Below are positions 1-28,427 of a DNA stretch of 28,427 bases, piece after piece. A program made the position numbers and the translations under genes. How positions within the stretch are numbered: position 1 is the first letter of the stretch; each line of letters starts with the position of its first letter. This stretch comes from Candidatus Bathyarchaeota archaeon (GTDB lineage Archaea > Thermoproteota > Bathyarchaeia > Bathyarchaeales > Bathyarchaeaceae): contig JAGLRI010000001.1 in the NCBI GenBank assembly GCA_023136395.1, positions 1-28,427 of the forward strand. The letters run 5' to 3'. The notes beneath the pieces are model-generated. The model did not search any database, had not been told where the DNA came from, and worked only from the letters and a program-made list of their open reading frames with translations.

Positions 1-30
1 CTGTAAATGTTAAAGCCTCAAAGAATTGTT

Positions 31-1520: not shown

Positions 1521-1665
1521 CCTATAAAAACGCGGGGGTTGTACTTTTTAATTTATACATAGCTAATTAGTGATGTATGCAACACCCCAAGTATAAATAT
1601 TCTACCAACAAATTCCTTTAAATATATCTACTCCAATTTTTTTGTATCTAGTTGAGGCATTATAA

Positions 1666-2655
1666 ATGGCTAAAGAAGCCCTTTCAACAAAAAAAGAATA
1701 TAAACGCCTCGAAGACCTTCCAGGAATTGGGTCTACGACTGCTAGAAAGCTCCGCGAATTAGGCTTTCACACCATAGAAACTTTAGCAACGGCTACTACT
1801 CAGGAACTACAACGGGCAGGTATTGGAGAAAAAAAAGCGGGAGAGATAATTTGCGAGGTACGATCATACATCTCTCTTCCTTTTATCAGAGTAGACGAAT
1901 TACTTAAAAAACAGCAAACTGTTTTGAGACTAACCACCGGTAGCAAGTCACTTGACGACCTTGTGGGAGGAGGACTTGAAACTCAAACTATAACAGAGTT
2001 CTACGGGGAGTTTGGATCGGGGAAGAGTCAGATTTGCCATCAATTATGTGTTAATGTGCAACTTACTCCTGAGAGAGGAGGATTTGGTGGCGGAGCTTTA
2101 TATATTGATACAGAAAACACCTTTCGAACTCAACGCATTATTCAGATGGCGAAGCATTTGGGATTGGACCAAGATGAGGTTGCTAAGAACATCATTTATG
2201 CTGAAGCATATAACTCCGATCACCAGATGTTTCTGGTGGATAACGCGGATAAGGTAATTAATGAGAATAATATTCGTTTGATCATCGTGGATTCCTTGAC
2301 CTCTCATTTTAGGAGCGAGTATATTGGTAGAGAGCTGTTAGTAGAGAGGCAGCAGAAACTCAATAAACACCTACACAAACTAATTAGATTAGGGCGGGCT
2401 TTCAACGTGATTGTAGTCGTGACAAATCAAGTAATGGCTAAGCCAGATGTTTTCTTCGGTGAATCCGTATATCCTGTTGGGGGTCACATTCTTGCGCACA
2501 CAAGCAACACTCGATTATTCCTTCGAAAACCAAGAAGGGGCCCTATAAGGATCGCTCGCCTCATTTCAAGTCCATACCTACCCGAGGGAGAAAGAATGTT
2601 TACAATCACCGAAAATGGGATAGAAGATCTTTCAGAAGATGATCAACGGAGATAA
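1666..2655 (+). CDS. radA: DNA repair and recombination protein RadA
   Basis: 329 aa; N-terminal HhH (LEDLPGIG), Walker [19 protein letters not shown], Walker [20 protein letters not shown]. No intein. TATA-like TTTAAATA at 1617-1624. Confidence 0.97.
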
Positions 2656-2661
2656 TGATAA

Positions 2662-3006
2662 TTGCCTATTTCCCCTGCTGTTGTAACGCGGTTCGTTAGA
2701 CGCTTAATGGAAAGAAGATTTGCTGAGGCAGATCGTGTATTGGAACCGTTAAGAAAAGGAGCACAAAAAAATGATTGGGAGAAAGGATATCTCCAAGCCC
2801 TCAATGGCATGCTCTTAGCCGCGCGCGCATCGGATGATGACAGGCACCTTTTTCTTTCAAACATAAAATCTAGTAAAAAAGGTGAATTGCAAAAATACCG
2901 TCGCGAATTTTTAAAATATGCTAAGAGTGGGCTTCATGCAGATTATGATCGTGGTTTCTTCTCGGCCTGGGCTGAGTATATAAGGGTAACTTCTAAAGTA
3001 AAATGA
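2662..3006 (+). CDS. Hypothetical helical protein, probably co-transcribed with radA
   Basis: 114 aa ORF with a TTG start 6 nt after the radA stop and GGAG at 2648-2651. Internal repeat DWEKGYLQAL / DYDRGFFSAW. Confidence 0.7.
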   Translation: MPISPAVVTRFVRRLMERRFAEADRVLEPLRKGAQKNDWEKGYLQALNGMLLAARASDDDRHLFLSNIKSSKKGELQKYRREFLKYAKSGLHADYDRGFFSAWAEYIRVTSKVK

Positions 3007-3090
3007 GTGTAATCAACAAAACGATTCTGATAGTTAACGATTTACTTGAAAAGCAGATATGGATTTATGTTAATAAGACCACTAACCTAT

Positions 3091-3381
3091 TTATCCAGAT
3101 GGATGTGTGATAGTATACACTAGAATCCAGGTCACGATCCACATGATAAAATATGTACCTATACCCGTTGTAAACACCTTTTTTAAGTCCTCAGATGCTT
3201 CTCCCCATTTACCAGCAAACCAGCGTTTAAGGATGTAGTTGGTAAGGATGTAAAAAATTAATACAATGCCTACACCATTCATAAGATTAAGGTTAAAAAA
3301 CAATCCTAAAAAACCGCTTATTACTGCTGCAGTGATGCCTAAACAAACTCTGCTCCAGTAAATAACACTTAAAGGCTTCAA
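3091..3381 (-). CDS. Small 3-TM membrane protein resembling the Rab5ip family (EMC6 / OPTI-RAB5IF-like)
   Basis: 96 aa; three hydrophobic segments; VIYWSR...GFLGL at the N-terminus and TYFIMWIVTWILVYTITH at the C-terminus; TTG start with AGGAAG SD at 3395-3390. Confidence 0.65.
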   Translation of the reverse strand: MKPLSVIYWSRVCLGITAAVISGFLGLFFNLNLMNGVGIVLIFYILTNYILKRWFAGKWGEASEDLKKVFTTGIGTYFIMWIVTWILVYTITHPSG

Positions 3382-3408
3382 ATTAATTTCTTCCTAGGGG
3401 TAAATATT

Positions 3409-5400
3409 TTGAAGGAGGAGATGTCTAGTTTTGACATAGCCACTATTACCCCTGAAATCAACAAAGTAATTAGGGGTGCATGGATAGATAACATTTACCA
3501 AAGTAATCATTCAACCATTCTTTTAAAGTTTCGCCAACCCGGCAAGTCCCCAATTAATTTGCTTATAGAATCGGGAAGACGCCTTCACATAACCTCCTAC
3601 ACCGTAGAAAAACCGCTAAAACCTCCAATTTTTTGCATGGCCCTCCGAAAGTACTTGAAGAACGGGAAGGCGGTGGAGATTATTCAACACGAGTTTGACC
3701 GAACTGTGGTAATTAGCGTAAACACAAAGAGTGGAGAATTTAAACTCGTATCTGAACTGTTTGGTGTTGGAAATGTTATCCTGGTAAGTCCAGAAGATAG
3801 AATTCTTCATGCTTTGCATTATCGAAAAATGAAAGATAGAAGCATATGGCGTAATGAAATCTTTCAATTCGCTCCTTCAAAAGGTAAAAACCCACTTAAA
3901 TTAAATCGCCAAGATTTGAGTGAAATAAAGAATTTAGGGCAACAAGAAATTGTGCGGGTTCTTACAAAAGTTCTTAGTATAGGCGGACTTTATGCAGAAG
4001 AAATTCTTTTGCGCGCTCAAATTGACAAAAAAATGCCATGCGAACTAATTTCTGAACAGGAGATTGACAGACTCTTTAAACATCTTCGTCAAATCATCTC
4101 CTCCATTAGTGTTGGAAACATAAAACCAAATATCGTTTTTGATGACGAGAAGGGATGGATCGACGTAACCCCCATTTCCCTTAAAAAACACTTAGGTTTA
4201 AAACAAAAATTATTTAAAACTTTCAATGAAGCATTGGATGACTTTTACACGAATACAAGTTCGAATCCTAAAGTTGTTGATGTGGAACAAGAATTAGCAA
4301 GACAAAAAAGAATACTACAAAGTCAACTAAAAGCCCAAAAAGTTCAGAAAGAAAAGATTAAACAAAACAAAAAGATTGGTGACACGATCTATTTGCACTT
4401 TAATGAACTACAGTTTCTCCTTCAAAAAATCATGGATGGGAAAAAGAATGGTAAATCTTGGAAGCAAATAACTTTTAATATTTTAAAGGAAAAGGAAGAG
4501 GGAAAGATTCCAGCTGTCTATTTTCACTCCTTAGAGCCTGAAAACCGAATTTTTAATATTTGCATAAAAAACCTGAATTTTTCACTAGCGCTTCATCTTT
4601 CCATTCAAACTAGCGCAAATGACTATTATTCAATTGCAAAAAAAGCTAGAAAGAAATTGGAAGGTGTTAAGAAAGCCATAAGAAAAACCCAAATAAACAT
4701 AGAAGAGCCTCAACGGCAGTGGATTGAACTAATAAAAGAAAAAGATGAACTGCCGCGTAAAAAAAGGAAAGAGGCGTGGTACGAAAAATTCCGGTGGTTT
4801 CATTCGTCAAATGGATTTCTCGTTATTGGAGGAAGGGATGCCACAACAAATGAGATCATAATCAAGCGTTACATGGAACCCTACGATAAAGTTTTCCACG
4901 CGAATATCCATGGCGCACCCTTCGTTTTAATTAAAACCGAGGGGAAAATCCCACCTGATCAAACAATGAATGAAGCAGCCAAGTTTGCAGCCTCATATTC
5001 ACGGGCTTGGAAGGAGAGATTAGGCTCAGTCGATGTCTATGAATTTTCTCCTCAACAGGTAAGCAAAAGCCCACCATCAGGTCAGCATCTCAAGAAAGGA
5101 TCATTCATTATCTCAGGTCAAAAAAAGTCGTTTCGGAATGTTCCCTTAAGGATTGCCGTTGGAATTAAGTGGAAAAAAAAGTATCTTATAGTTATTGGAG
5201 GTCCTACGGAAACTATTGCTAATCAAACAAACAATTACGTTGAAATAATCCCAGGTGAGCAGAAAAGCGGAAGGCTTGCCAAGCAAATACGAGGATTATT
5301 AGCCAAGAGAGCACCTGAGAACCTAAAAAAACAAATTCTAAGGATTTCCTTAGAGGAAATACAAAAATTCACCCCGGGGGGTAGAGGGAAAATACCATAA
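3409..5400 (+). CDS. rqcH: Ribosome quality control protein RqcH/Rqc2 (NFACT family)
   Basis: 663 aa; NFACT-N (MSSFDI, FCMALRKYL, EFDR, ELFG.GN), coiled coil, NFACT-R (WYEKFRWF.SS.GFLVIGGRDA, HANIHGAP), SKSPPSGQHLKKGSF and NFACT-C. Confidence 0.93.
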   Translation: MKEEMSSFDIATITPEINKVIRGAWIDNIYQSNHSTILLKFRQPGKSPINLLIESGRRLHITSYTVEKPLKPPIFCMALRKYLKNGKAVEIIQHEFDRTVVISVNTKSGEFKLVSELFGVGNVILVSPEDRILHALHYRKMKDRSIWRNEIFQFAPSKGKNPLKLNRQDLSEIKNLGQQEIVRVLTKVLSIGGLYAEEILLRAQIDKKMPCELISEQEIDRLFKHLRQIISSISVGNIKPNIVFDDEKGWIDVTPISLKKHLGLKQKLFKTFNEALDDFYTNTSSNPKVVDVEQELARQKRILQSQLKAQKVQKEKIKQNKKIGDTIYLHFNELQFLLQKIMDGKKNGKSWKQITFNILKEKEEGKIPAVYFHSLEPENRIFNICIKNLNFSLALHLSIQTSANDYYSIAKKARKKLEGVKKAIRKTQINIEEPQRQWIELIKEKDELPRKKRKEAWYEKFRWFHSSNGFLVIGGRDATTNEIIIKRYMEPYDKVFHANIHGAPFVLIKTEGKIPPDQTMNEAAKFAASYSRAWKERLGSVDVYEFSPQQVSKSPPSGQHLKKGSFIISGQKKSFRNVPLRIAVGIKWKKKYLIVIGGPTETIANQTNNYVEIIPGEQKSGRLAKQIRGLLAKRAPENLKKQILRISLEEIQKFTPGGRGKIP

Positions 5401-5477
5401 CGCTTTAAAATATTTAAACAAATTTTGGAGAATGATTTAATAGATAACTAACCAATCTACGTAACGGAGGTCTAGCT

Positions 5478-6053
5478 GTGGCCGAAATAATCGTGAGGGA
5501 GCGAATGCTGGTTAAAGACGTTATGTCAAGCCCCGCAATTACAGCCAATGAGGATACTTCCATTAATAAAGTAGCCCGTTTAATGGAACAATATAAAATA
5601 GGGTGTATAATTGTAACAAGTAAAGATGGAAAACCTTTAGGAATGATCACTGAGAGAGATCTGGTGCTTCGCGTTTTGGTTAAAAACGCTCAAACAAGCA
5701 AGATAACTGCCAAGATGGTGATGACGTCACCTCTCATTACCATAGATCTTGATGAGACGATAAGCGAAGCAGCCAGAAGAATGAGTCAGCTTGATATTCG
5801 AAGGTTTGCTATTATATACCGAGGAAATCTTGTCGGCATAATTTCAAGCAAGGATATTCTCGCGGTTACACCTGAACTCATAGAAATCATGCAAGAGAAA
5901 GCTCGGATTGAAGGATTTGTAGAAGAGGAGATACAGCGTTCCCCTCTAGCAGGATATTGCGATCAGTGTGGACGTTGGTCTGACACCTTAAAGGAGACTG
6001 AAGGAAACTTTCTCTGTAAGGAATGCCAAATTGAATTTGAAGTTGAATACTGA
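5478..6053 (+). CDS. CBS-pair protein with C-terminal Zn ribbon
   Basis: Two CBS repeats (VKDVMSSP...GMITERDL; KMVMTSP...GIISSKDIL) and C-terminal CDQC...CKEC; GGAGGT SD at 5466-5471 before GTG. Confidence 0.88.
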   Translation: MAEIIVRERMLVKDVMSSPAITANEDTSINKVARLMEQYKIGCIIVTSKDGKPLGMITERDLVLRVLVKNAQTSKITAKMVMTSPLITIDLDETISEAARRMSQLDIRRFAIIYRGNLVGIISSKDILAVTPELIEIMQEKARIEGFVEEEIQRSPLAGYCDQCGRWSDTLKETEGNFLCKECQIEFEVEY

Positions 6054-6166
6054 AGAGCCAAACGCCTGCATATTCAAGATGACAAATCTATACTATTTGC
6101 AGCCACAGGTATCTTTAAGGTTAACTACATAGTGCATCAAGTTGAAGCATCTGGGTGGTCTCTAGA

Positions 6167-7513
6167 ATGAAGAAATTACAATTAGTAGATCTAAATCTAA
6201 TCAATGCAAAAATTTTTTTAAAGAACGAATTTATTGAAGCAGGAATATCTATTGAAGCAAATCGAATAAATAAAATAGCTAAACTACCAAATATGCCCAA
6301 GGCATCAAAAACAATTGATGTTAATGGCAATATCGTTTTACCAGGTTTGATCGATGTTCACGTCCATCTTCGGGATCTTAAGCTGTCTTATAAGGAAGAC
6401 TTTAACACTGGGACTTGTGCAGCAGCCGCCGGAGGCTTTACAACTGTTCTAGACATGCCTAACACACAACCCCCTACAAACACGCCTGAACGTCTAAAGA
6501 AAAAAATTCAACGAGCAAAAAATCGAGTAATTGTGAACGTTGGTTTTTACGCCGCTTTTCCTAAGCAATTTAAACAAATTGTGGAAATGTATAGAAACGG
6601 AGCAATTGCTTTCAAAGTCTTCCTTTATCACCCCATAACTGAGCTAGATGTAAACTGTGACGATGTACTCCTCAAAGTCTTTAAGTGTGCTAAACAATTA
6701 AATCGACCAGTAGCCGTCCACGCCGAAGAAGGCGAAATAGTCCAAAGAATTGAAGAAGATCTCCGAAAATCTGGAAAATCGTCGCTGAACCACCATCTTA
6801 AAGCCCACTCAATTAAGAGAGAGGTTAATGCCGTACAACGAGTAGTAAAACTTGCTAAACAAACAGGTTCACATATACATTTTTGTCACATAAGTGCAGC
6901 TTCTTCAATAAGACACATTAAAAAATTAAAACAACACATAACTTGTGAAACCACTCCACATCACATATTTTTAACAAAAGATGTCCTTCGTAAGTGTGGA
7001 AGTATAGCTTTAATGAATCCTCCGCTAAGATCACGTCTTAACACAACTAGGTTATGGCACGCCCTCAATGATGAGTGGATAGACATCCTCGCAAGCGATC
7101 ATGCTCCTCATGCATTACAAGAGAAAACGAATGAAAACATCTGGGAAGTTTCCCCTGGAATACCTGGACTTGAGACAACTTTACCTTTAATGTTAACCCA
7201 AGTGAATAATGGAAGAATGTCATGGGGTCGTTTAACCCAGATTCTTGCAACAAAACCCGCTGAAATATTTCAATTGAATAGAGGTTTCATTAAAACGGGC
7301 AGTGTTGCAGACCTGGTCATTGTTGATGTGAATCAAGAATACAAAATAGATTCATCAAAATTCTATTCAAAAGCTAAGTACTCCCCATTTGACGGACGAA
7401 AAGTTAAAGGCAAACCAATAAAAACCTTTGTTAGCGGTTGTTTGGTGTACGATTCAGGGGAAATTGTTTCAGAACCTGGATCTGGAACCATTTTGACTGG
7501 ATCTTCCCATTAA
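6167..7513 (+). CDS. pyrC: Dihydroorotase (amidohydrolase family)
   Basis: DVHVHLRD, DMPNT, HAE, HFCHIS, ETTPHH, NPPLR, ASDHAPH, PGLET, KYSPF. The likely start is ATG 6167 (GGGTGG at 6153-6158) rather than the listed 6155. Confidence 0.85.
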   Translation: MKKLQLVDLNLINAKIFLKNEFIEAGISIEANRINKIAKLPNMPKASKTIDVNGNIVLPGLIDVHVHLRDLKLSYKEDFNTGTCAAAAGGFTTVLDMPNTQPPTNTPERLKKKIQRAKNRVIVNVGFYAAFPKQFKQIVEMYRNGAIAFKVFLYHPITELDVNCDDVLLKVFKCAKQLNRPVAVHAEEGEIVQRIEEDLRKSGKSSLNHHLKAHSIKREVNAVQRVVKLAKQTGSHIHFCHISAASSIRHIKKLKQHITCETTPHHIFLTKDVLRKCGSIALMNPPLRSRLNTTRLWHALNDEWIDILASDHAPHALQEKTNENIWEVSPGIPGLETTLPLMLTQVNNGRMSWGRLTQILATKPAEIFQLNRGFIKTGSVADLVIVDVNQEYKIDSSKFYSKAKYSPFDGRKVKGKPIKTFVSGCLVYDSGEIVSEPGSGTILTGSSH

Positions 7514-7570
7514 GGGCCATTGGATTGATAATGATTACTGAATGCCTTAGGCCAGAAAATAGAAGAATAA

Positions 7571-8719
7571 TTATAAATGGAAGATCTGCTGCGCTTCAGC
7601 CATTCCAGCTCCTATTTCAACGGGATAATTAACATCGTTTAAAGCGTTTTCGAGGGCGCTAATTGTTAAGAGAGTTTCTTTTTCAGAAATAATTCCCATA
7701 CACCCTATTCTGAGAAGTGATTGCTTAAGTTTTTCATGACCTCCAGCTACTATAACCCAATACTTTTCTTTCATGATTTTTCGAACTTCAGTGTTATCAA
7801 CACCAGCTGGTACATCTATAGCGATTATAGTGTTTGAACGAAATTTTTCTTTTGGAAAAGGCATCAACCTTAACGCTTTTATAGCCGAGTAAAAAGCTCT
7901 GGCACATTTCTCATGTCGTTTAAATCGGTTTTCGAGACCTTCTTCGTGTAATAATGTTAATGTTTCATCTAATGCATAAAAAAGTGGCAACGAAGGAGTG
8001 GTCGGATTCTCCCGTCTTTTACTGGATTCCCGAAAATTAATTAGATCAAAATAGTATGGTTTAGCTGTAGTATCTTCTATGGTTTCCCAAGCCCTTTTAC
8101 TTACTGAAATAACTGCAAGTCCGGGAGGACAAGCCAAGCATTTTTGACTCCCAGCCACACACAAATCTACTCCCCATTCATCTACAGGTAAATAATCCCC
8201 GCCTAGGATCGAAACCGCGTCTACTATGAGCATTATACCCTTTTCCCTGGCAACCTTTCCAATTTTAGGGAGATCACGCACAGTAACACCCGTAGACGTT
8301 TCATTATAGACAAGAGCTATAGCTTTCACGTTCTTTTCTAGATCAACAATCTGCTTTAGATCCTCTACGATAGGAGCCTTCCCAAATTCCACAGGTAATT
8401 CAATAACTTCTCCACCACGGCGAATTACTTTATCTTTCAGCCGCTCACTGAAAACACCAAAAACTGGAACAATAACCTTGTCACCCGAATTTACAACATT
8501 GCTAATTGCACATTCAATCCCACCTGTACTTGATGATGTCAATATGAAAACGTCGTCCCTAGTTTGAAAGACATACTTCAAGTTCTCGGTCACACGCTCA
8601 TAGAGAGCATGAAACTCCGGTCCTCTATGATTTATTATGGGTTTAATCATTGCTCGCATAACCTGATCTGGGATGTTGGTTGGACCAGGTAACATTATTA
8701 GATGTTTTTTTCCTTTCAA
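7571..8719 (-). CDS. Class V PLP aminotransferase (alanine-glyoxylate / serine-pyruvate type)
   Basis: 382 aa; MLPGPT, HRGPEF, SSTGGIE, YNETSTG, VDAVS, GSQKCL (PLP lysine), LRIGCMG. Confidence 0.92.
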   Translation of the reverse strand: MKGKKHLIMLPGPTNIPDQVMRAMIKPIINHRGPEFHALYERVTENLKYVFQTRDDVFILTSSSTGGIECAISNVVNSGDKVIVPVFGVFSERLKDKVIRRGGEVIELPVEFGKAPIVEDLKQIVDLEKNVKAIALVYNETSTGVTVRDLPKIGKVAREKGIMLIVDAVSILGGDYLPVDEWGVDLCVAGSQKCLACPPGLAVISVSKRAWETIEDTTAKPYYFDLINFRESSKRRENPTTPSLPLFYALDETLTLLHEEGLENRFKRHEKCARAFYSAIKALRLMPFPKEKFRSNTIIAIDVPAGVDNTEVRKIMKEKYWVIVAGGHEKLKQSLLRIGCMGIISEKETLLTISALENALNDVNYPVEIGAGMAEAQQIFHL

Positions 8720-8838: not shown

Positions 8839-9645
8839 TTAAGGATTTTCACCCCACGTGATGAGAGGATGGAAAAGGTCTAATCTTCTATCACTCCAAA
8901 GATCGTTGTATTCTGTAATTTTTTTATTTTCCGCTTGTTTTATGTCAATCTCAATAACCTTAACTTCCTCAGACTTGCCACTTTTTGAAAGAATTTTCAT
9001 GTTTGGATTAAGTATCTGGCTTCCACCAGTGAATCGAACTCCTCTTTCAACCCCAATTCGATTTGCAGTTATGATGAAAATCTTGTTCTGAATCGCAGCT
9101 CCGAGGAGTGCTGTTTGACAATAGGGTAAAACTAGATTAGCTGGGTGACATATCAAGTGGGCTCCCTTCAAGGCAAGTATCCGAATGACCTCGGGGAAAA
9201 ACCAATCAAAACATATCATTATACCGATTTTTGCTTTAGAGACATCATAAACAATGAATTGACTATCACCCATTGAGAAGTATATTTTTTCTCTGTTAAA
9301 GAGATGAGCTTTTCTATATACACCCATAAATCCAGTGGGACCAACAAGGATCGCAGAATTATAATATTTTCCTTTCTCCCTTTCGCATACTCCTGCAACA
9401 ACGTAAACCCGTTTCTCTCTTGCGAAGGTTGCTAGTACTTCTGTTGTTTCACCCTCTGGTACATCTTCAGAAAGGGATTTTAATTCCTTCTTCGATCTAA
9501 AAACATAACCGGTATTACAGAGTTCAGGCAAAACAATGAGATCAGACCCTTGCTGAACTCCTTCATCTAACAATTTTAGGATTGTTTTAACATTTCTTCC
9601 TTTTTCCCCAAAAACGGGGTTAAATTGGATATATCCAACTTTCAT
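8839..9645 (-). CDS. Nitrilase / carbon-nitrogen hydrolase family protein
   Basis: 268 aa; catalytic E-K-C triad in LPELCNTGY, YRKAHLF and ICFDWFFPE. Confidence 0.92.
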   Translation of the reverse strand: MKVGYIQFNPVFGEKGRNVKTILKLLDEGVQQGSDLIVLPELCNTGYVFRSKKELKSLSEDVPEGETTEVLATFAREKRVYVVAGVCEREKGKYYNSAILVGPTGFMGVYRKAHLFNREKIYFSMGDSQFIVYDVSKAKIGIMICFDWFFPEVIRILALKGAHLICHPANLVLPYCQTALLGAAIQNKIFIITANRIGVERGVRFTGGSQILNPNMKILSKSGKSEEVKVIEIDIKQAENKKITEYNDLWSDRRLDLFHPLITWGENP

Positions 9646-9714
9646 CCAATCACATCTAACTAAAATATATTTAAAGAAAATACGTGATATCCAAATTTTT
9701 CTTTTTTACTTACG

Positions 9715-10239
9715 CTAGATCCTATCCGTTTTTGTTAAGTCCCTCAGCCTTTCAATACCACCAATCTCCTCAATTAACTGACTCACGGGCGTTGGTACAA
9801 GGTCCCTCCATTTTTCCCCATTCACCATTCTTTTCCGTATCTCAGTTGCAGATAATATTTTGCGTTTGTGAAAAGGCACTGGTTTAACTTCGAAGCCACC
9901 ATCAATGAATAACCGGCGAGTTAGCGGTTCGTTGGTATAAATCATATGGAATTTTGGTGTATAACCTACAATCTGAGCGACCCACAACATATGGATGTGT
10001 ACATCAGGTACTGGAATTATCCAGCATCTTGACATATCAATTCCCTCTACCTCCAAGGTTCGTTTAATCATCGTAACACGTTCACCCGTAGTGAATGGAT
10101 TATCTAATGTATGACTGTATTGAGAACTTCCAACCACTACCACGAGCTCGTCAACAGTTCCTAAAATATCCTTTACGGCTTTCAAGTGCCCTATATGAAA
10201 TGGTTGGAACCTGCCTACGAAAATTGCACGTTTTACCAT
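9715..10239 (-). CDS. nadM: Nicotinamide-nucleotide adenylyltransferase (archaeal NadM)
   Basis: 174 aa; FVGRFQPFHIGH (HxGH), SSQYSHTLDNPFT.GER, SATEIRKRM. Confidence 0.95.
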   Translation of the reverse strand: MVKRAIFVGRFQPFHIGHLKAVKDILGTVDELVVVVGSSQYSHTLDNPFTTGERVTMIKRTLEVEGIDMSRCWIIPVPDVHIHMLWVAQIVGYTPKFHMIYTNEPLTRRLFIDGGFEVKPVPFHKRKILSATEIRKRMVNGEKWRDLVPTPVSQLIEEIGGIERLRDLTKTDRI

Positions 10240-12001: not shown

Positions 12002-13144
12002 TTATTCATAAAGTTCTATTATTTCTGAAGTTTTATCTAAAGCATTAAACTTACTAGCATAATCTCCTATTTTTTTAATGTTTCTTTTATAAAAATCATA
12101 GTTTTCTTCAATTTTTTTAATAGCAAGTGCTAACTCTTTTTTGTTTCTAACGGAGAGAGCACAGCCTAAATTCTCTAATTTCGCAGCATTTGCTTTTTGC
12201 TCAATTTGGGTTGGCATACAGATTATGGGCTTTCTGTATTTTAATGCCTCAAAACAGGTTCCATGACCACTAGGAATTATGAAGATTTTTGCTCTTTTCA
12301 TGTATCCTTTTCTTGTTTCTTCTTTTAACCAGCCAAAAATTTTACATCGTCCATACTCTCTATAAAAGTTATTGAAAGGTTCGCCTAAACTTACTATGCT
12401 TTCGTGATCTAAACTAGATAAAACGGGTATTACTTCTCTCTTTAAGTTTTCTCTAGAGCCGAAAGGCCCTGTTATTGAAGCGTAAATAAATTCTTCTGAT
12501 CCTTTCTCAGGATTCATATTTAAAAAAGGACCAACAAATTCAACTTTTTTTCTAATTCCAAGTTGGTTTAAATCACCTAAATTATATTCACAGATAGTGT
12601 ATGGTGGTGGGAGATCAGGGATTATTATTTTATTACAGTTTTTGATGTATCTCTCCACTAATTTCTGACCTGGATAGAGAAAAAAATTAATAGGAAAATT
12701 GTATTTGGGTTGAATAATATTGGTGATAAAAATTGAGGGTTTTCCCAATCTTTGTACCATTCTTAAAGAAGTAACATCTCCATCAGATACCAGTATATCT
12801 GCTTTGATTTTAGAAAAAATTTCCCTTTCATCATAATATCGATAAATTGTTTCTATCGAACTTGGCCTTTTTATCTTGATCTTTTTATGATCGTAATCAT
12901 ACTTTGGTAAAGGAATAAAGACGTTTAAAACAGAGGCTGTTGGCATTATACCATACGTAGTTTCATGCCAGGCTATAGGTGTGCAGTAAAAAACATCCTT
13001 AAATTTATTTTTTAATAGTTTGTATGCATTTCCTCCGGTGGCAAATGATACCTTGTGTCCTCGATTTATCAGTTCATTTCCAAGTTGCATACTTCTAGAA
13101 GCATGCCCCAAACCTAAATCATTACAAGTATAGAAAACCCTCAC
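12002..13144 (-). CDS. GT-B glycosyltransferase (GT28 C-terminal / MJ1255-like)
   Basis: 380 aa; N-terminal GLGHASR, LVSDGD, FVGP, C-terminal SGHGTCFEAL...P.Q.EQ..NA; GAGGAG SD upstream of GTG. Confidence 0.85.
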   Translation of the reverse strand: MRVFYTCNDLGLGHASRSMQLGNELINRGHKVSFATGGNAYKLLKNKFKDVFYCTPIAWHETTYGIMPTASVLNVFIPLPKYDYDHKKIKIKRPSSIETIYRYYDEREIFSKIKADILVSDGDVTSLRMVQRLGKPSIFITNIIQPKYNFPINFFLYPGQKLVERYIKNCNKIIIPDLPPPYTICEYNLGDLNQLGIRKKVEFVGPFLNMNPEKGSEEFIYASITGPFGSRENLKREVIPVLSSLDHESIVSLGEPFNNFYREYGRCKIFGWLKEETRKGYMKRAKIFIIPSGHGTCFEALKYRKPIICMPTQIEQKANAAKLENLGCALSVRNKKELALAIKKIEENYDFYKRNIKKIGDYASKFNALDKTSEIIELYE

Positions 13145-13317: not shown

Positions 13318-13890
13318 TTAGGCGTAATAAATCAAATTTTCCTCTTCCAGTTTTTGATGGAGGTTATTAACTGCTTGATATGCAGTCTCCTCCTTTCTTG
13401 TTCCAGTACAAACAAGTTTTCCGCTTGCAAAGACGAGAATCACAGCTCTTGGATTGTGCATTCGGTATATAAGACCGGGAAATTGTTCTGGTTCATATAT
13501 AATTCTTCCACCCATTCCTCTTGCGGACTCGTATAATTGTAAGAGATCAATCGCCCCGCCTAAACTTGCAGAGGCTACGATATTTACAATTTTAATAGTC
13601 ATTTTACATATATTGATCATGCTGCCTTCCTTTAACCGGTTAATAACATTATTCAAAGCACCTCTTGCTTCGTTTTCAGACCTTGCACCGGTACAAACCA
13701 TTTTACCTGAACTAAAAATAAGAGTAGCGGTTTTTGGCTTTTTTAGTCGAAATATCACTCCAGGAAACTGTTTCGGGCGGTATTCTACACTTGGAAAAAT
13801 TCTTACTAATGCATTTAAGTCGATCTTATGCTCTGAAGATGCTGAAGCCACAACATTCACGATGTTAATGGTTGCTTCAACCATTGTCAT
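13318..13890 (-). CDS. tbp: TATA-box binding protein
   Basis: 190 aa; two direct repeats (NVVAS...QFPG..FR...LIFSSGKMVCTG and NIVAS...YEPEQFPGLIYR...LVFASGKLVCTG) with all four DNA-intercalating Phe. Confidence 0.97.
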   Translation of the reverse strand: MTMVEATINIVNVVASASSEHKIDLNALVRIFPSVEYRPKQFPGVIFRLKKPKTATLIFSSGKMVCTGARSENEARGALNNVINRLKEGSMINICKMTIKIVNIVASASLGGAIDLLQLYESARGMGGRIIYEPEQFPGLIYRMHNPRAVILVFASGKLVCTGTRKEETAYQAVNNLHQKLEEENLIYYA

Positions 13891-13994
13891 TTAGAATACC
13901 ATTAAAAAAACATTTAGTATAAATTTAAAAAAGGTTTTTCATGTCTTGGATTGAGTTAATTTGCTTTCAAATAGAGTCACAATACCTGATTCCA

Positions 13995-14465
13995 TCAATT
14001 TAACATTTTCTTTGATTCACTTAGAGTCTTTTTTATTCGTTTCCAATGAGCCCCTTGCCAGTATATTTGCTCACAACTGGAACACGCCCAAAACTTGTCA
14101 TAATTGGACAAAGTTCTCTTTGGAACTTTACTTACAACTTGATCTTTAAGAATGGGTTTAATTTTTGTATTACATTTTGGACAACGAGAAATAGTGACAT
14201 CAATTTCAAGATTAAGGTTAAATCGCTTTGCCAAGTTAGTGAGTTTTTCAGCCTTTGTTGTTCCCTCAACAACGAAGACAGTTACTCCCTGAGTCATGCA
14301 TTGTTGGTAGAGTTCAATGTCGCGAGTAAGTAAGATGCGGTGTTCCGTCTTTGCGATCTGGATTAACTGCTTATCATCTAAGAAACTGGAGTATTTTATG
14401 TCATACCCTAACATTCGTAGCCATCTAGTAAGTTTACCTAGCATTCCATCCGCTACGAACTTCAC
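13995..14465 (-). CDS. Mut7-C RNase (PIN-like plus Zn ribbon, DUF82/COG1656)
   Basis: 156 aa; FVADGMLGKLTRWLRMLGYD, LLTRD, RCPKCN, FWAC..C.QIYWQG.H. Confidence 0.92.
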   Translation of the reverse strand: MKFVADGMLGKLTRWLRMLGYDIKYSSFLDDKQLIQIAKTEHRILLTRDIELYQQCMTQGVTVFVVEGTTKAEKLTNLAKRFNLNLEIDVTISRCPKCNTKIKPILKDQVVSKVPKRTLSNYDKFWACSSCEQIYWQGAHWKRIKKTLSESKKMLN

Positions 14466-14607
14466 TTATGCCACTCCATGATTTGCCACTAATATGTGAT
14501 TTTTTATATCATATTATTATATCATCTCTAAAGGAAAGATAAAAATATAAACTCGAAATTTAAGGGGGGTAACCGATTTATTGATGATACTATTGCGATT
14601 CTTTATA

Positions 14608-23433: not shown

Positions 23434-23835
23434 CTAAAAACTATTGCTTGCAAGTTTAACTAAGGTATTTGTGTTTAAGACTGCTGGAAGCGCTCTGATT
23501 TTATCGACCTTTTTATTTAGCTCATTTATTGTATAAGCCTGGATTAGGGCAGCAACATCATAATCACCTGATACTTCAAAAATTTTTTCTGAAACCTCTT
23601 TCATTTTCAAGGCTACATTTCTAGTTTCATTGGGATCCGTTTTCACCAGAATTATTCCCTCCACTTCAACTTTTGTTTCAATAGTGAACTTAGTTATTAT
23701 CCCCTGCTCAAGTAACTTCTTTACTCTCATCCTCACTGCTCCTTCAGTTAAGCCAATAATTTCCGCCATTTTCACGTATTTTGTTCGAGAGTCCCGCTTT
23801 AATATTCCAAGGATTTTTTCATCTATTTCGTCCAT
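23434..23835 (-). CDS. lysM: Lrp/AsnC family regulator, LysM-like
   Basis: 133 aa; D.ID.KIL..L..D.R.....A...G..E.AVR.R...L...G.I..FTI HTH, and RAM domain (EVSGDYD...I.....N..VD.IR). Divergent from the lysine operon. The symbol rests on overall resemblance plus context. Confidence 0.75.
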   Translation of the reverse strand: MDEIDEKILGILKRDSRTKYVKMAEIIGLTEGAVRMRVKKLLEQGIITKFTIETKVEVEGIILVKTDPNETRNVALKMKEVSEKIFEVSGDYDVAALIQAYTINELNKKVDKIRALPAVLNTNTLVKLASNSF

Positions 23836-23872
23836 ATGAATTGTTGTTATAAATATGAAAATAAAAACATTG

Positions 23873-23912
23873 CTACGAAAATCGCAGTATGATTAATTTA
23901 CGATTTTCGTAG
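23873..23912. promoter_or_regulatory. Two inverted semi-palindromic operator sites between lysM and dapA
   Basis: CTACGAAAATCGCAG (23873-23887) and TTACGATTTTCGTAG (23898-23912; reverse complement CTACGAAAATCGTAA). Confidence 0.7.
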
Positions 23913-24000
23913 TAAAAATATAAAAAACGAAAGGTTTAAAAGTTCCTAATGTTCTGCTTTCAATAAACCCGTCAATTAATGGAAAGGTGAATATAAGAAA

Positions 24001-25038
24001 ATGAAAGTGTTCAGCGGCTGTTATACTGCACTTGTAACGCCAATGAAGAAGACTTGTGAAGTTGACTACGAAAGCTTACAGAGATTGGTTGAGTTTCAGG
24101 TAAGAGAAGGTGTGCAGGGCATTCTTGCTGTTGGGACTACTGGTGAATGTGCGACGTTAACTTGGGACGAACACGTCAAAGTCATTGAAAAAATACACGA
24201 GGACATCAATGAAAGATGTGAGACAATTGGCGGAACAGGAAGTAACTGCACAGAGGAAGTTATAAACGCCTCAAAAAGCGCGTGGGATTTTGGGGTAAAA
24301 TCCTTGTTGCTTGTAGATCCATATTATAACGGACCAAGCTCCATTGAAATAAGAAAAGAGTACATCGAACCAGTAGCGAAACGATTTCCTGAAGCCGAAA
24401 TTATTCCATACGTGATTCCTGGAAGAACAGGCACCCAACTTTTACCACAAGATTTAGCCATCCTACATTCTGAGTACAAAAATGTAAATACTGTCAAGGA
24501 GGCAACAGGTAACTTAGAAAACATGAAATTAACCAGAAAGTTTTGCGGGAAAAATTTTAACATTCTTTCTGGAGATGATGATAAAACGTATCAAATGATG
24601 ACATCTCCAGAGATCATGTCTAAAGGCGTGGTTTCAGTGGCATCGAACGTCGTCCCTAATGCAGTTCAGAATATGGTTCAAAGCATTCTTGATGGGGACC
24701 TAGACGAAGCTGTTAAGCTTACTAAAGCGCTTAAACCCATGTTTAGAATAGTAACAGTCAAGACAGAGGAAGAAACACCGTTTGGTCCTATGATTTGTAA
24801 AGCCAGAAATCCTCTGCCTTATAAGACTTTAATGAATATTTTGGGAATGTCCACAGGTCCCTGCAAGCAACCATTAGGAAAGATGACAAGGAAGGGAGTG
24901 GAAACTATACTAAATGAAGTGAAAGAGGTCTATGTAAATAATCCCGAGATACTGCAACCAATAGAAGATTTTTTCGATGTTGATATGAGCAACCGCTTGT
25001 ACGAGGAGAAGTTTTGGAAGGAATATTTCTATGATTAG
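24001..25038 (+). CDS. dapA: 4-hydroxy-tetrahydrodipicolinate synthase
   Basis: TALVTP, GTTGE, GTGSN, PYY, PGRTG, catalytic VKEA, LSGDD; extended C-terminus. Confidence 0.9.
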   Translation: MKVFSGCYTALVTPMKKTCEVDYESLQRLVEFQVREGVQGILAVGTTGECATLTWDEHVKVIEKIHEDINERCETIGGTGSNCTEEVINASKSAWDFGVKSLLLVDPYYNGPSSIEIRKEYIEPVAKRFPEAEIIPYVIPGRTGTQLLPQDLAILHSEYKNVNTVKEATGNLENMKLTRKFCGKNFNILSGDDDKTYQMMTSPEIMSKGVVSVASNVVPNAVQNMVQSILDGDLDEAVKLTKALKPMFRIVTVKTEEETPFGPMICKARNPLPYKTLMNILGMSTGPCKQPLGKMTRKGVETILNEVKEVYVNNPEILQPIEDFFDVDMSNRLYEEKFWKEYFYD

Positions 25039-25819
25039 TATTTGCATAGCTGGTGTTACCGGTAGAATGGGAAGTACACTCCTTAGAGAAGCCTTAAACA
25101 AAAGTTATCAGATTGTTGGAGCTGTTGAGTCTCCAAATAATGTAAACATTGGGAAAAGCTTAAGAGAGATTGGGCTGTGTAGCTCAGACGTTAAATTAAT
25201 GAGCTCAGCAGATTTAAGTGAATCTATAAAAAACGCAGACGTTTACATAACTTTTACCACACCGGATGCGGAGGTTTCTAATCTTCCCGTTGTCGCTGAG
25301 CTTGGGAAGAGGATTGTGATGGGTACTACTGGTTTCACTAATGAACAAATGGAAAAGATCCGGAAAACAGTTTCCAGCAAGGTTCCAGCTGTTTTTTCAC
25401 CTAACTTTGCTTTGGGCGTAAATGTTTTGTTCAGGTTGACCAAAAATTGCAAGGCTTTTCCGTCGGAATACGACTTCAGCATAACTGAGATCCATCATAC
25501 CGGAAAGAGGGACGCTCCCAGTGGGACAGCAAAAGAAATTGCCCGAATAGTTTCAAGTTTTAAAGATTACACTAAGGTTATTTATGGCAGAGAAGGATTA
25601 AGCCTAAGGAAATCAGATGAACTAGAAATCTTATCTTTGAGAACGGGGGGTGTTCCTGGGGTACACAACTTAGTAATCGCCGGTCCATACGAAATGATAA
25701 GAATAGAACACACGGCTTTCTCAAGAAGTGTGTTTGCTCAGGGCGCCTTATACGCTGCAGAATGGGTTTACAAACAAAGCGAATCGAGAATTTATAGCAT
25801 GGAAGATGTCTTACGCTGA
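25031..25819 (+). CDS. dapB: 4-hydroxy-tetrahydrodipicolinate reductase
   Basis: G.TGRMG, MGTTG, SPNFALG, EIHHTGKRDAPSGTA, H...SR..FA.GAL.AA.W. Confidence 0.95.
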   Translation: MISICIAGVTGRMGSTLLREALNKSYQIVGAVESPNNVNIGKSLREIGLCSSDVKLMSSADLSESIKNADVYITFTTPDAEVSNLPVVAELGKRIVMGTTGFTNEQMEKIRKTVSSKVPAVFSPNFALGVNVLFRLTKNCKAFPSEYDFSITEIHHTGKRDAPSGTAKEIARIVSSFKDYTKVIYGREGLSLRKSDELEILSLRTGGVPGVHNLVIAGPYEMIRIEHTAFSRSVFAQGALYAAEWVYKQSESRIYSMEDVLR

Positions 25820-25831
25820 ATTCAGTTGTGA

Positions 25832-27016
25832 ATGCATATGGATGATAGAGCAGTAATCAAATTTGGTGGTGCGGACCTTTCCACTGGCTGGGGGATCAGG
25901 AGATCAGCTGAAATGGTAGTTAAGTCTAGTTATAAAGAAGTTGTCGTGGTTGTTTCAGCTATTGGGAAGACAACAGATAAGTTAGAAGAGATAATATCAC
26001 AAATTAACATTAGCGACCAGGATTACGCTGAAATCGTTTCAATTGGTGAAAGAACTAGTGCTAGAATTTTCTGTTCCGCGTTAAGATCCCTTGGAGCTAA
26101 TACCAGCTATTTCGACCCCAGCTTAGATAATTGGCCATTAATCACGGACTCGAATTTCCGTAACGCTAAACCAAATATGAAGGAAACGAAGAGCCTTGTT
26201 AAAAAATTTTTAGAGCCCATGTTAGGAGAAGCAATTCCGGTAGTATGTGGTTTTCTTGGGCGTGACCGTCACAGAAAAATCACCACGCTTGGCAGAGGCG
26301 GAAGCGATATAACCGCTTTACTACTTGCAAACTGTTTGGAAGCAAATGAAGTGATACTCGTTAAGGATGTGGAGGGTGTGCTTTCATCGGACCCTAAAAT
26401 AGTGCCAAATGTTAAGCCTTTTGATAAACTGGACATCCACGAGATGTTTGCCCTAGCGCAGGGAGGCGCAAAAATTGTTAGAGCAGAGGCATTAACATAT
26501 AAACGTCCAAACCAGAGACTCAGAATAGTTGGTTTCTCATCAAACAACCTTGTAAAGGGAGGAACGGAGATCACTGGCACTTTCAATCCATTTTCCGTAG
26601 AGATTAATCAATATGAAGGCTTATCAGCCATCACTGTGGTTTGCAAAATTAACCCGGAAAACCTTAGTACACTTTTCTCAACACTTCACCAAAAAACCAT
26701 TTATGGAGTCAGTACGGGGAAAAATTCCATTACCGTTTTTTCCCAGCATAAGGACATTGAGGAAACTATTAATAAATTACACAATCGCGAAAACTTCAAA
26801 GCTATCAGCTATAGGGATAAAGTTGGAATTATTGAAGTAACTCATCCGGTTTTTATTGATTCTCCGGGATGGGTTTCGAAAATTGCTGGTGAATTGGCAT
26901 CAAAGGACATTAATATTATTGAGATTACTACGGGCAAAGCAACAATTAACATTTTTATTGACGAAAAGCGCCTTAAGGATGCAAGTAAAGTGGTAGGTGA
27001 AGTGTTTGAAGCGTAA
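25832..27016 (+). CDS. lysC: Aspartate kinase with C-terminal ACT domains
   Basis: KFGG, VVSA.G.TT, GER.S, GFLG, TTLGRGGSD.TA, DVEGV.S.DP. The start could be ATG 25838. Confidence 0.92.
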   Translation: MHMDDRAVIKFGGADLSTGWGIRRSAEMVVKSSYKEVVVVVSAIGKTTDKLEEIISQINISDQDYAEIVSIGERTSARIFCSALRSLGANTSYFDPSLDNWPLITDSNFRNAKPNMKETKSLVKKFLEPMLGEAIPVVCGFLGRDRHRKITTLGRGGSDITALLLANCLEANEVILVKDVEGVLSSDPKIVPNVKPFDKLDIHEMFALAQGGAKIVRAEALTYKRPNQRLRIVGFSSNNLVKGGTEITGTFNPFSVEINQYEGLSAITVVCKINPENLSTLFSTLHQKTIYGVSTGKNSITVFSQHKDIEETINKLHNRENFKAISYRDKVGIIEVTHPVFIDSPGWVSKIAGELASKDINIIEITTGKATINIFIDEKRLKDASKVVGEVFEA

Positions 27017-28058
27017 AGTAGCAATCTTAGGTGCAACAGGAGCTGTTGGACAGAGATTTATTCAACTGCTTCAGGACCATCCATGGTTTGAAATAGAGGT
27101 ACTTGCAGCATCGGTGAGATCCGCGGATAAGAAGTATAAAGACACGCGTAAATGGATTTTAAGTTCTGATTGTCCTCCTGAGATTAATGAAATGACAGTA
27201 GTGAACACAGATATTAAATCAGTAGAAAAAGCAGGCAACGTGGATTTTGTTTTCTCTGCTTTGCCGGGTGGGATAGCAGGACCTGTTGAGGAGGAATTCG
27301 CTATGAAATATCCAGTCGTTAGTAAAGCTAGCGCCCATAGACTAGAGGTGGATATTCCTCTCCTCATACCAGAAGTAAACCCAGATCATCTAGCCATAAT
27401 ACCAATCCAGAAGAGCAATAGGAATTGGAATGGATTTATCTCTACAGACCCAAACTGTTCAACGATACAATTGGTAATTACCCTTAAGCCACTCATGACT
27501 TTCGGTCTCAAAAAGGTTATTATTTCAACGATGCAAGCTTTGAGCGGTGCGGGTTACCCTGGAGTAGCCTCTCTAGAAATTATTGACAATGTTATACCCT
27601 TTATTAATAAGGAAGAAGAGAAGACTGAGTCCGAACCGTTAAAGATTTTGGGAACCTTTGATGGAACAAGAGTGCAACAAGCAAACATTGCTATTAGCTC
27701 AAGTTGCAATCGTGTTAACGTTAAGGATGGTCATTTACAATCAGTTTTTGTCGAGTTGGAGGAAGAGACAAGCATAGAAGAGGTAGTGAAATCCTTTGAA
27801 AAATTTAAAGGAAAACCTCAAAGATTGGGGTTACCTTCTGCTCCTGACAATCCGATAATCGTGAGGGGTGAAGAGAATAGACCTCAACCGAGATATGATA
27901 GGGATGAGGGAAAAGGAATGAGTGTCGTAGTTGGCAGGATTAGAAATGACCCAATATTAACCGTTAAATACATGTGTTTGGGGCACAACACAATAAGGGG
28001 AGCTGCTGGCGCAGGAATTCTCAGCGCGGAACTTATGGCTGTAGAAGGATACATTTAA
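27006..28058 (+). CDS. asd: Aspartate-semialdehyde dehydrogenase (archaeal type)
   Basis: LGATGAVGQ, catalytic PNCST, QALSGAG, CNRV...GH, GHNTIRGAAG. The likely start is TTG 27006 (GGTGA at 26996-27000). Confidence 0.95.
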   Translation: MKRKVAILGATGAVGQRFIQLLQDHPWFEIEVLAASVRSADKKYKDTRKWILSSDCPPEINEMTVVNTDIKSVEKAGNVDFVFSALPGGIAGPVEEEFAMKYPVVSKASAHRLEVDIPLLIPEVNPDHLAIIPIQKSNRNWNGFISTDPNCSTIQLVITLKPLMTFGLKKVIISTMQALSGAGYPGVASLEIIDNVIPFINKEEEKTESEPLKILGTFDGTRVQQANIAISSSCNRVNVKDGHLQSVFVELEEETSIEEVVKSFEKFKGKPQRLGLPSAPDNPIIVRGEENRPQPRYDRDEGKGMSVVVGRIRNDPILTVKYMCLGHNTIRGAAGAGILSAELMAVEGYI

Positions 28059-28093
28059 TTAAACCTATTTTGAAAATCAGGAGAGTATGAGAA

Positions 28094-28427
28094 ATATTCC
28101 TTTCTAAAATACTAGAAAATAGAAAAGGGGCCTTGTATATTGACGAAGTCTCAGCCATAGAACTGTCAAAGAAATTTAACACACCATTGTATATAATAAG
28201 CGAAAAAAGAATCAAAGAAAATTATAAACGCCTCTACAATACTTTTTATCAAAAATACCATAAAATAAGAATTTATTATTCTGCAAAAGCAAACACAAAC
28301 CTATCTATACTAAGGATATTGAAACGCGAGGGAGCATACATAGACGCTGTTAGTCCTGGAGAAGTGTTTTTAGCCTTAAAAGCGGGGTTTACTCCAGAAA
28401 AAATTTTGTTCACTGGAACAAGTGTGA
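28094..28427 (+). CDS. lysA: Diaminopimelate decarboxylase, 5' part (runs off the window; start codon uncertain)
   Basis: Own translation (frame of 28094): IFLSKILENRKGALYIDEVSAIELSKKFNTPLYII...YSAKANTN...GAYIDAVSPGEV..AL.AGF.PEKILFTGTSV, containing the PLP lysine motif AKAN. Not in the ORF track. Confidence 0.9.
   Translation, partial: MFLSKILENRKGALYIDEVSAIELSKKFNTPLYIISEKRIKENYKRLYNTFYQKYHKIRIYYSAKANTNLSILRILKREGAYIDAVSPGEVFLALKAGFTPEKILFTGTSV

Follow-up and report, generated by a model that had tools for sequence, protein, structure and literature searches.

A LysM-like Lrp-family regulator head to head with a diaminopimelate lysine operon in Bathyarchaeia

LysM, a short protein of the Lrp/AsnC family that was reportedly the subject of a study by Brinkman in 2002 in Saccharolobus solfataricus / Sulfolobus acidocaldarius, ranks among the few archaeal transcription activators that are understood in detail; so far, it is known only on the LysW/aminoadipate lysine genes of the Sulfolobales. 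Here, we describe a LysM-like regulator encoded on a 28,427-nucleotide stretch of DNA (the window; contig JAGLRI010000001.1, positions 1 to 28,427) from a Bathyarchaeia metagenome-assembled genome (MAG) of 1.42 Mb in 253 contigs that is 81% complete. The regulator gene, lrp, stands head to head with dapA, the first gene of a diaminopimelate (DAP) lysine operon with the order dapA-dapB-lysC-asd-lysA. In the literature searched, we found no paper that places archaeal DAP genes under a LysM-family regulator.

LysM binds at Sulfolobus lysW mainly to a site 11 bp upstream of the transcription factor B recognition element (BRE) and TATA box, and it acts there as an activator in the absence of lysine. 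Ptr2 of Methanocaldococcus jannaschii, likewise an Lrp-family activator bound just upstream of the BRE/TATA, recruits the TATA-binding protein (TBP) from a position equivalent to the LysM site; its half-site is GACGA, with Tyr24, Glu35, and Arg39 in the recognition surface. FL11 (PH1519) of Pyrococcus sp. OT3 is a 150-aa global regulator, mostly a repressor, that reads the box CGAAAwwwTTTCG via Leu24, Ser36, and His39. The preference of both LysM and FL11 for lysine over arginine over glutamine has been ascribed to residues 97 and 121, whose side-chain oxygens bind the lysine side chain (Song et al., PMC3597687); the printed text names residue 97 "glutamine," and all sequences compared here have Glu at the aligned position.

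The DNA recognition code of these feast/famine regulatory proteins (FFRPs) was derived by SELEX, with residues 24, 34-37, and 39 (FL11 numbering) reading bases a-e of abcdeWWWe'd'c'b'a' (Yokoyama et al. 2009, PMC2715240). For TvFL3 of Thermoplasma volcanium (Asn24 Ser34 Glu35 Gly36 Thr37 Arg39), the SELEX optimum is TACGA[AAT/ATT]TCGTA, and replacement of Gly36 by Thr moves the optimum to TTCGA (PMC2715240). We compare TvFL3 with the window protein by recognition residues and SELEX box, the targets and effector of TvFL3 not being described in that paper.

The regulator and its pairing with the DAP operon

The genes of the locus are as follows:

23434-23835, minus strand: lrp, 133-aa Lrp/AsnC (FFRP) regulator, LysM-like (Pfam, NCBIfam, and trees)
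24001-25038, plus strand: dapA, 4-hydroxy-tetrahydrodipicolinate synthase, 345 aa (TIGR00674, 225 bits, cut-off 206)
25031-25819, plus strand: dapB, 4-hydroxy-tetrahydrodipicolinate reductase (TIGR00036, 209 bits, cut-off 122)
25832-27016, plus strand: lysC, aspartate kinase with ACT domains (TIGR00657, 258 bits, cut-off 209; Pfam AA_kinase and ACT)
26997-28058, plus strand: asd, aspartate-semialdehyde dehydrogenase, archaeal type (TIGR00978, 435 bits, cut-off 301)
28133-28427, plus strand: lysA, diaminopimelate decarboxylase, N-terminal 98 codons, the gene being cut by the contig end (TIGR01048 positions 9-103)

An earlier note on this DNA had described an Lrp protein divergent from dapA-dapB-lysC-asd-lysA, and every gene that it named lies where it had been placed. 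The regulator and dapA diverge from a 165-bp spacer, and the dap genes are expected to form one transcript because their junctions are tight (-8, +12, -20, and +74 nt in operon order). On its other flank, the regulator's stop codon lies 8 nt from the end of trpA, whose convergent orientation places the regulator outside the trp operon. An Rfam scan of the whole window returned no families and thus no riboswitch or other known RNA in the leader. DapA carries ≈40 residues at its C terminus beyond the coverage of the Pfam and TIGRFAM models, an extension that overlaps the start of dapB; the length of DapA is similar in relatives (≈344 aa).

This pairing recurs widely. A scan with one genome per species returned 80 loci, among which 29 further MAGs have an orthologue of the regulator (55-68% identity) head to head with dapA. 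In seven more MAGs, the dap operon lies on the same side of the orthologue at a distance of 1.1-5.5 kb, and the rest are on cut contigs or on contigs without dap genes in the available upstream stretch. More distant relatives (37-51% identity) adjoin DAP operons in Thermoplasmata (loci L056, L067, L073, and L077) and in Micrarchaeota and other DPANN archaea (loci L058, L083, L088, and L090), and some of these are co-directional with the operon as its first gene. Because it recurs in ≈30 other MAGs, together with an operator motif in all 32 head-to-head spacers, the arrangement is far beyond chance.

The regulator consists of an HTH_AsnC-type domain at residues 1-41 (PF13404, 51.4 bits, cut-off 27) and an AsnC_trans_reg (RAM) domain at residues 62-126 (PF01037, 28.2 bits, cut-off 25). 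It aligns over its full length to the FL11 and LrpA structures, the nearest solved structure being that of the lysine sensor FL11 (phmmer, 65 bits, E 5e-17), which has two short insertions relative to the window protein. Among curated families, the top match is LysM (NF040947) at 123 bits, a margin of 69 bits over the second, LrpA, at 54 bits, and the full-length identity to S. acidocaldarius LysM (LysM_Sa) is 38%; Sulfolobaceae LysM proteins of the characterized type score 201-220 bits against the same model.

We anchored the canonical LysM clade by exact look-up of S. acidocaldarius LysM (locus L096; AAY80128), the protein of Song et al., and further anchors were the LysM sequences of Sulfurisphaera, Saccharolobus, Sulfuracidifex, Metallosphaera, and Nitrosarchaeum. 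In a tree of 77 sequences, 65 LysM-like proteins split with support 100/92 from 12 other Lrp paralogs, taken from S. acidocaldarius (three) and from four Bathyarchaeia genomes including that of the window. Within the LysM-like group, the window protein falls in a clade (98/87) in which 18 of the 21 rows are DAP-linked and which is distinct from the Sulfolobaceae LysM clade (100/96) and from a Bathyarchaeia/Nitrososphaeria "LysM-type" clade (98/91); the branching order among these clades is not fixed. A first quick tree, in which two outgroup paralogs fell inside the ingroup through a long-branch effect, was set aside and replaced by trees with 12-15 paralogs.

The earlier note's description of the protein as LysM-like is therefore borne out by family score, identity, lysine-contact residues, and a phylogeny that groups it with LysM proteins apart from other paralogs. 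It does not extend to membership of the canonical clade, the protein having a DAP-linked clade of its own, nor to the LysM equivalog cut-off of 180 bits. Further traits set the two apart. The target here is the DAP operon, not lysWXJK, and the regulator is divergent from that target, whereas LysM is embedded in its lys cluster; the LysW genes near this locus are headed by a different Lrp protein. On these sequence comparisons, the regulator is best called a LysM-like, DAP-operon-linked FFRP with TvFL3-type DNA specificity rather than a member of the curated LysM equivalog. The automatic annotation of IMG labels some orthologues "regulator of lysine biosynthesis."

Operator boxes and the DNA recognition code

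The spacer between lrp and dapA contains two palindromic boxes, O1 and O2, and predicted promoter elements on either side:

23857-23867, minus strand: predicted lrp TATA element TTTTTATTTTC, 22-32 nt before the ATG, read from the sequence
23874-23886, no strand assigned: operator box O1, TACGAAAATCGCA, one mismatch to TACGAWWWTCGTA, adjoining the lrp promoter
23899-23911, no strand assigned: operator box O2, TACGATTTTCGTA, a perfect match to TACGAWWWTCGTA, upstream of the dapA core promoter
23928-23942, plus strand: predicted dap promoter, BRE CGAAAGG plus TATA TTTAAAAG, aligning with CGAAAAAC-ATAAATA
23986-23990, plus strand: dapA ribosome-binding site GGTGA, from the sequence

The distance of the predicted lrp TATA element from the start codon implies a leaderless or near-leaderless transcript, and O1, only 38 nt from that codon, is likely an autoregulatory site. 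Throughout the 1.42-Mb assembly, six sequences match TACGAWWWTCGTA with at most one mismatch, and two of the six fall in this spacer, 25 bp apart, including the only perfect one. The other four, three inside open reading frames and one before nucS, we take as chance matches. For the window, 0.10 box matches are expected and two are found. A scan of the spacer for bacterial promoters and terminators gave nothing meaningful, its single "terminator" being O1 itself.

The boxes are conserved in both sequence and position. All 32 head-to-head spacers, which range in length from 105 to 426 bp, contain at least one 13-mer within two mismatches of TACGAWWWTCGTA (shuffled spacers: mean 1, maximum 5), and 20 of them contain two boxes. 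The motif CGAAAAAC-ATAAATA, composed of a BRE and a TATA-like element, is kept in 29 of the 32 orthologous spacers. The dapA-side box ends 9 nt before this motif in 24 of those 29, 16 nt before it in the window and three others, and 10 nt before it in one. On the opposite side, 21 of the 32 spacers have the start of the lrp-side box 33-38 nt away from the lrp ATG. Because the two boxes are anchored separately, each seems to serve its own promoter.

The main argument for the regulator binding these boxes is the fit between its predicted recognition residues and the bases of the half-site. Residues Y20, T30, E31, G32, A33, and R35 correspond to FL11 positions 24, 34-37, and 39, where the window protein and its whole clade present Tyr Thr Glu Gly Ala Arg. 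Glu35, Gly36, and Arg39 are common to the regulator and TvFL3, whose SELEX optimum is exactly the TACGAwwwTCGTA box conserved in the 32 spacers; the two differ at positions 24 (Tyr in the window protein, Asn in TvFL3), 34 (Thr and Ser), and 37 (Ala and Thr), and the Thermoplasmata family members in the loci examined share Asn24 with TvFL3. Since the recognition residues fit the TvFL3 code, a regulator of this Gly36 type is predicted to read TACGA, which is the half-site observed. The locus is thus a natural test of the FFRP recognition code.

The comparison with LysM points the same way. Tyr24, Glu35, Ala37, and Arg39 of the recognition surface are common to both proteins, and both are associated with a palindrome of 13-15 bp that has CGA-www-TCG as its core and lies ≈10 bp upstream of the BRE/TATA of an operon for lysine biosynthesis. 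Unlike LysM, which combines Ala36 with TTCGA, the regulator combines Gly36 with TACGA, and the canonical LysM set (Tyr/Phe24-Ser34-Glu35-Ala36-Ala37-Arg39 with the box TTCGAwwwTCGAA) is found in neither the protein nor its boxes. The idea in the earlier note that the LysM operator had been retained consequently does not hold as it stands, the half-site being TACGA and not the TTCGA of Sulfolobus LysM, in keeping with Gly for Ala at position 36. A search of Sulfolobaceae and Nitrososphaeria LysM loci gave no match to TTCGAwwwTCGAA with up to one mismatch, the natural sites being degenerate, so we take the Ala36/TTCGA link from the papers only.

Mode of regulation, effector, and origin of the arrangement

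Residues E87 and D111 of the regulator align with positions 97 and 121 and form its predicted lysine-contact pair. Both are invariant in an alignment of 29 orthologues. Every Sulfolobaceae LysM protein examined has the same E/D pair, numbered exactly E97/D121 in that of Saccharolobus sp. A20, and so does FL11, which senses lysine through it; other Lrp paralogs have different residues in these columns.

In our judgment, the protein is probably a lysine-pathway regulator of the LysM-like branch that is dedicated to the DAP operon and acts as a lysine-released activator with autoregulation. We favor lysine-released activation because the dapA-side box is placed like the LysM and Ptr2 sites relative to the predicted promoter: the conserved BRE/TATA-like motif follows it after 9 nt, or after 16 nt in the window. 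Dimers of the regulator would occupy both 13-bp palindromes (TACGAwwwTCGTA) of the 165-bp spacer. O2 is a short way upstream of the BRE/TATA of dapA, in the position from which Sulfolobus LysM and Ptr2 of M. jannaschii assist TBP and transcription factor B and so activate, and from this box the regulator would switch on dapA-dapB-lysC-asd-lysA, together with the aminotransferase gene behind them, when lysine is scarce. Binding of lysine to the C-terminal RAM domain via E87 and D111 would then lower the affinity for DNA and turn the operon down, and O1, beside the near-leaderless promoter of the regulator, would provide autoregulation.

Several observations weigh against lysine-released activation by a LysM-like protein. 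In the window, the distance from O2 to the BRE-like motif is 16 nt instead of 9 nt; a further run of TATA-like sequence, at 23915-23927, begins 3 nt past O2, a geometry that may be repressive; and the centers of O1 and O2, 25 bp apart, face opposite sides of the helix. The regulator scores below the LysM equivalog cut-off and lies outside the canonical LysM clade, and support for the split of the LysM-like group falls from 100/92 to 71/93 when three more paralogs are added; the tree alignment has 142 columns, and FL11, TvFL3, Ptr1/2, and LrpA are not among its sequences. The lysC and asd genes of the operon serve threonine and methionine synthesis too, so another aspartate-family signal could act. 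The ddh gene that completes the pathway elsewhere in the genome has no operator box upstream of it on its contig, C249. Finally, for all members of the window protein's clade, we infer binding, effector, and sign of regulation, like the reading of individual bases by individual residues, from published work on homologues.

The main rival explanation keeps the regulator and its boxes and makes the protein a repressor, bound with or without lysine and blocking the promoters of both dapA and lrp, in the manner of FL11 at its own targets. Generally a repressor, FL11 is also the protein with the nearest solved structure; O1 abuts the core promoter of the regulator's own gene; the second TATA-like run follows O2 closely; and Sulfolobus LysM has an accessory site over the BRE/TATA. 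We nevertheless regard repression as unlikely, because the promoter motif kept in 29 of the 32 spacers is downstream of O2, which leaves the box upstream of the BRE as at LysM- and Ptr2-activated promoters, and because the protein is nearer to LysM (123 bits, profile) than to FL11 (65 bits, phmmer). A local Lrp regulator of the operon might instead respond to an effector other than lysine, such as threonine, methionine, aspartate, meso-DAP, arginine, or glutamine. This would suit an operon whose lysC and asd feed several end products and a family in which Sulfolobus LysM answers to arginine, glutamine, and several further amino acids as well, and the specificity evidence here is the E/D pair, by homology. 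That pair, however, is invariant in the clade and identical to the lysine-contact pair of FL11 and LysM, and relatives of the regulator sit on the lysine-specific genes of both pathways (lysW-K; dapA/dapB/lysA), all of which makes a different effector rather improbable. Ptr2 has other targets, the ferredoxin and rubredoxin genes, and no known link to lysine.

A further explanation, put forward in the earlier note, concerns origin: a canonical LysM and its operator would have stayed in the lineage while DAP genes replaced the LysW/aminoadipate genes beneath them. LysM is indeed the best-matching family, and three genomes of the same GTDB family and another genus (G162, G176, and G294; 94-97% complete) have a 163-170-bit LysM between a homocitrate-synthase-like gene and lysWXYZJK. 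In these three, we found neither dapB nor an orthologue of the window protein, so close Bathyarchaeia differ in the lysine pathway that they use. In a sister clade, moreover, the same type of regulator and box precede lysW or dapA. As an account of the window's own lineage, however, the replacement seems to us very unlikely. The clade of the protein (98/87) is a separate one with DAP linkage throughout, Thermoplasmata included, and LysM proteins from the same GTDB family match the protein at no more than 40-41% identity; its half-site is not that of Sulfolobus; and the LysW genes are still next door, ≈1.5 kb past lysA, under an Lrp protein that is not LysM-like. The DAP link is old in the window's clade and common to all of it, so the swap cannot be placed in this lineage, and the direction of any swap there is not assignable. 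What stands of the proposal is that a pathway can be exchanged beneath a retained regulator, as is seen in the sister clade.

Lysine and arginine genes of the genome and its relatives

In a family neighboring that of the window, regulators of the same LysM-type sister clade are divergent from either target: dapA-dapB-lysC-lysA in G148 and G288, lysW in G222 and G061. Across this sister clade, a TACGA box stands before lysW in G176, G294, and G270 and before dapA in G148 and G288, and at each of these five loci, the single TACGA-type box in 10-20 kb falls exactly in the spacer between regulator and target. These observations are direct evidence that one regulator-operator type serves either lysine pathway in the sister clade, which makes it a clean case of a regulator kept across a non-orthologous pathway displacement. 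A move from LysW to DAP genes is suggested in that subclade because its outgroups are LysW-linked. In G176 (locus L125) and at G162:C1:1576595-1578315, LysM is divergent from lysWXYZJK and has a homocitrate-synthase-like gene of 412 aa directly behind it. Locus L071 (record title Candidatus Sulfotelmatobacter sp., Acidobacteriota) is on a contig binned as acidobacterial. Its LysM-type gene, divergent from lysW-X-Y-Z-J-K, is archaeal and nests among Bathyarchaeia/Nitrososphaerota sequences, and the contig is probably a mis-binned archaeal one.

The lineage of the window protein, a sister of LysM with a predictable one-residue/one-base change of operator, sits on the DAP operon in Bathyarchaeia, Thermoplasmata, and Micrarchaeota. 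Because it does so across these three groups, the LysM-like family seems to be tied to lysine as the end product rather than to the enzymes that make it, and one regulator family appears to govern both unrelated archaeal lysine pathways. With its defined sites and defined ligand, the locus offers a testable regulon in uncultured archaea.

The locus continues beyond the window on a second contig, C181 (L011). The last 29 nt of the window are the reverse complement of the C181 end, an exact and unique overlap, and the lysA frame runs on across the joint to a total of 414 aa. Past lysA, in the orientation of the window, come a dapF stump and an aspartate-aminotransferase-like gene, and then, convergent with the dap side, lysK-lysJ-lysZ-lysY(argC)-lysX-lysW-argH-argG. 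The features beyond the window are as follows:

C181 (L011) 278-8255, plus strand: argG-argH-lysW-lysX-lysY-lysZ-lysJ-lysK, convergent with the dap operon
C181 (L011) 8-109, minus strand: second Lrp, first 39 codons, the gene being cut by the contig end; divergent from argG
C181 (L011) 9552-9847, strand not given: dapF stump, frameshifted, ≈98 codons, just past the window end
C249 (L175) 740-1723, strand not given: ddh, meso-DAP dehydrogenase (TIGR01921, 439 bits, cut-off 181)

The whole lysW/X/Y/Z/J/K cluster for which the earlier note had proposed a genome search is thus on C181, where it is joined to the last two arginine genes, argG and argH. In the nearest relative, G359, the full orthologue of the second Lrp is a 146-aa protein (L176 16521-16961) that is 68% identical over the surviving fragment. 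We considered this protein as a "true" LysM and rejected it: the orthologue has Phe39 and an Asp/Asp ligand pair, scores nearly equally against the LysM, AsnC, and LrpA models, and groups in the tree with a non-LysM paralog of S. acidocaldarius. The second Lrp is a candidate arginine-branch regulator of the LysW system. Judging from this gene order, the LysW genes in the window's lineage look committed to arginine under the other Lrp, the LysM-like protein staying with lysine synthesis. A homocitrate synthase search of the window's genome gave only matches under the cut-off, homocitrate synthase not being separable from isopropylmalate synthase or citramalate synthase by this search; absence of the aminoadipate route from the genome is only suggested.

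The earlier note had correctly placed the remaining step of the DAP route (dapL, dapD, dapF, or ddh) outside the window. In G359 (L015/L176), the operon reads dapA-dapB-lysC-asd-lysA-dapF-dapL-aminotransferase, with DapF at 318 bits and LL-DAP aminotransferase at 517 bits. In the window's genome, only codons 1-59 and 56-98 of dapF are left, in two frames followed by a stop and 64-70% identical to the G359 gene, and dapL was not found anywhere in the 81% complete assembly. The route is closed instead by ddh on C249, which with dapA, dapB, and lysA at the locus makes up the Ddh variant of the pathway, in which the acyl-branch or DapL/DapF steps are dispensable. We rejected the possibility that C249 is a mis-binned bacterial contig, because in GC content and tetranucleotide composition it resembles the rest of the genome and because ddh has an archaeal/eukaryotic Elf1-type gene beside it. 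Ddh turned up in none of 80 sampled genomes of other Bathyarchaeia, and we read the situation as an apparently recent, lineage-specific displacement of DapL/DapF by an enzyme acquired laterally.

It is conceivable, and we offer it as a speculation, that a single module, a Gly36 LysM-type FFRP with TACGAwwwTCGTA ≈10 bp upstream of a BRE/TATA, is an archaeal lysine switch that operates on both non-homologous pathways and has moved more than once. The locus would then record three successive rewirings, in which a LysM-like switch came to sit on the DAP operon, arginine synthesis took over the neighboring LysW genes under a different Lrp, and DapL/DapF gave way to a laterally acquired Ddh that is not yet in the regulon.

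A further Lrp paralog of the same genome lies on contig C232 (L180) at 12589-13032 on the minus strand, with 62 bits to the LysM model and Asn/Lys as its ligand residues. It is divergent from an isopropylmalate/citramalate/homocitrate-synthase-like gene at 13433-14476 on the plus strand (genome coordinates), with two more such synthase genes upstream on C232, and the regulator and the gene that it faces may be a branched-chain amino-acid regulator-target pair.

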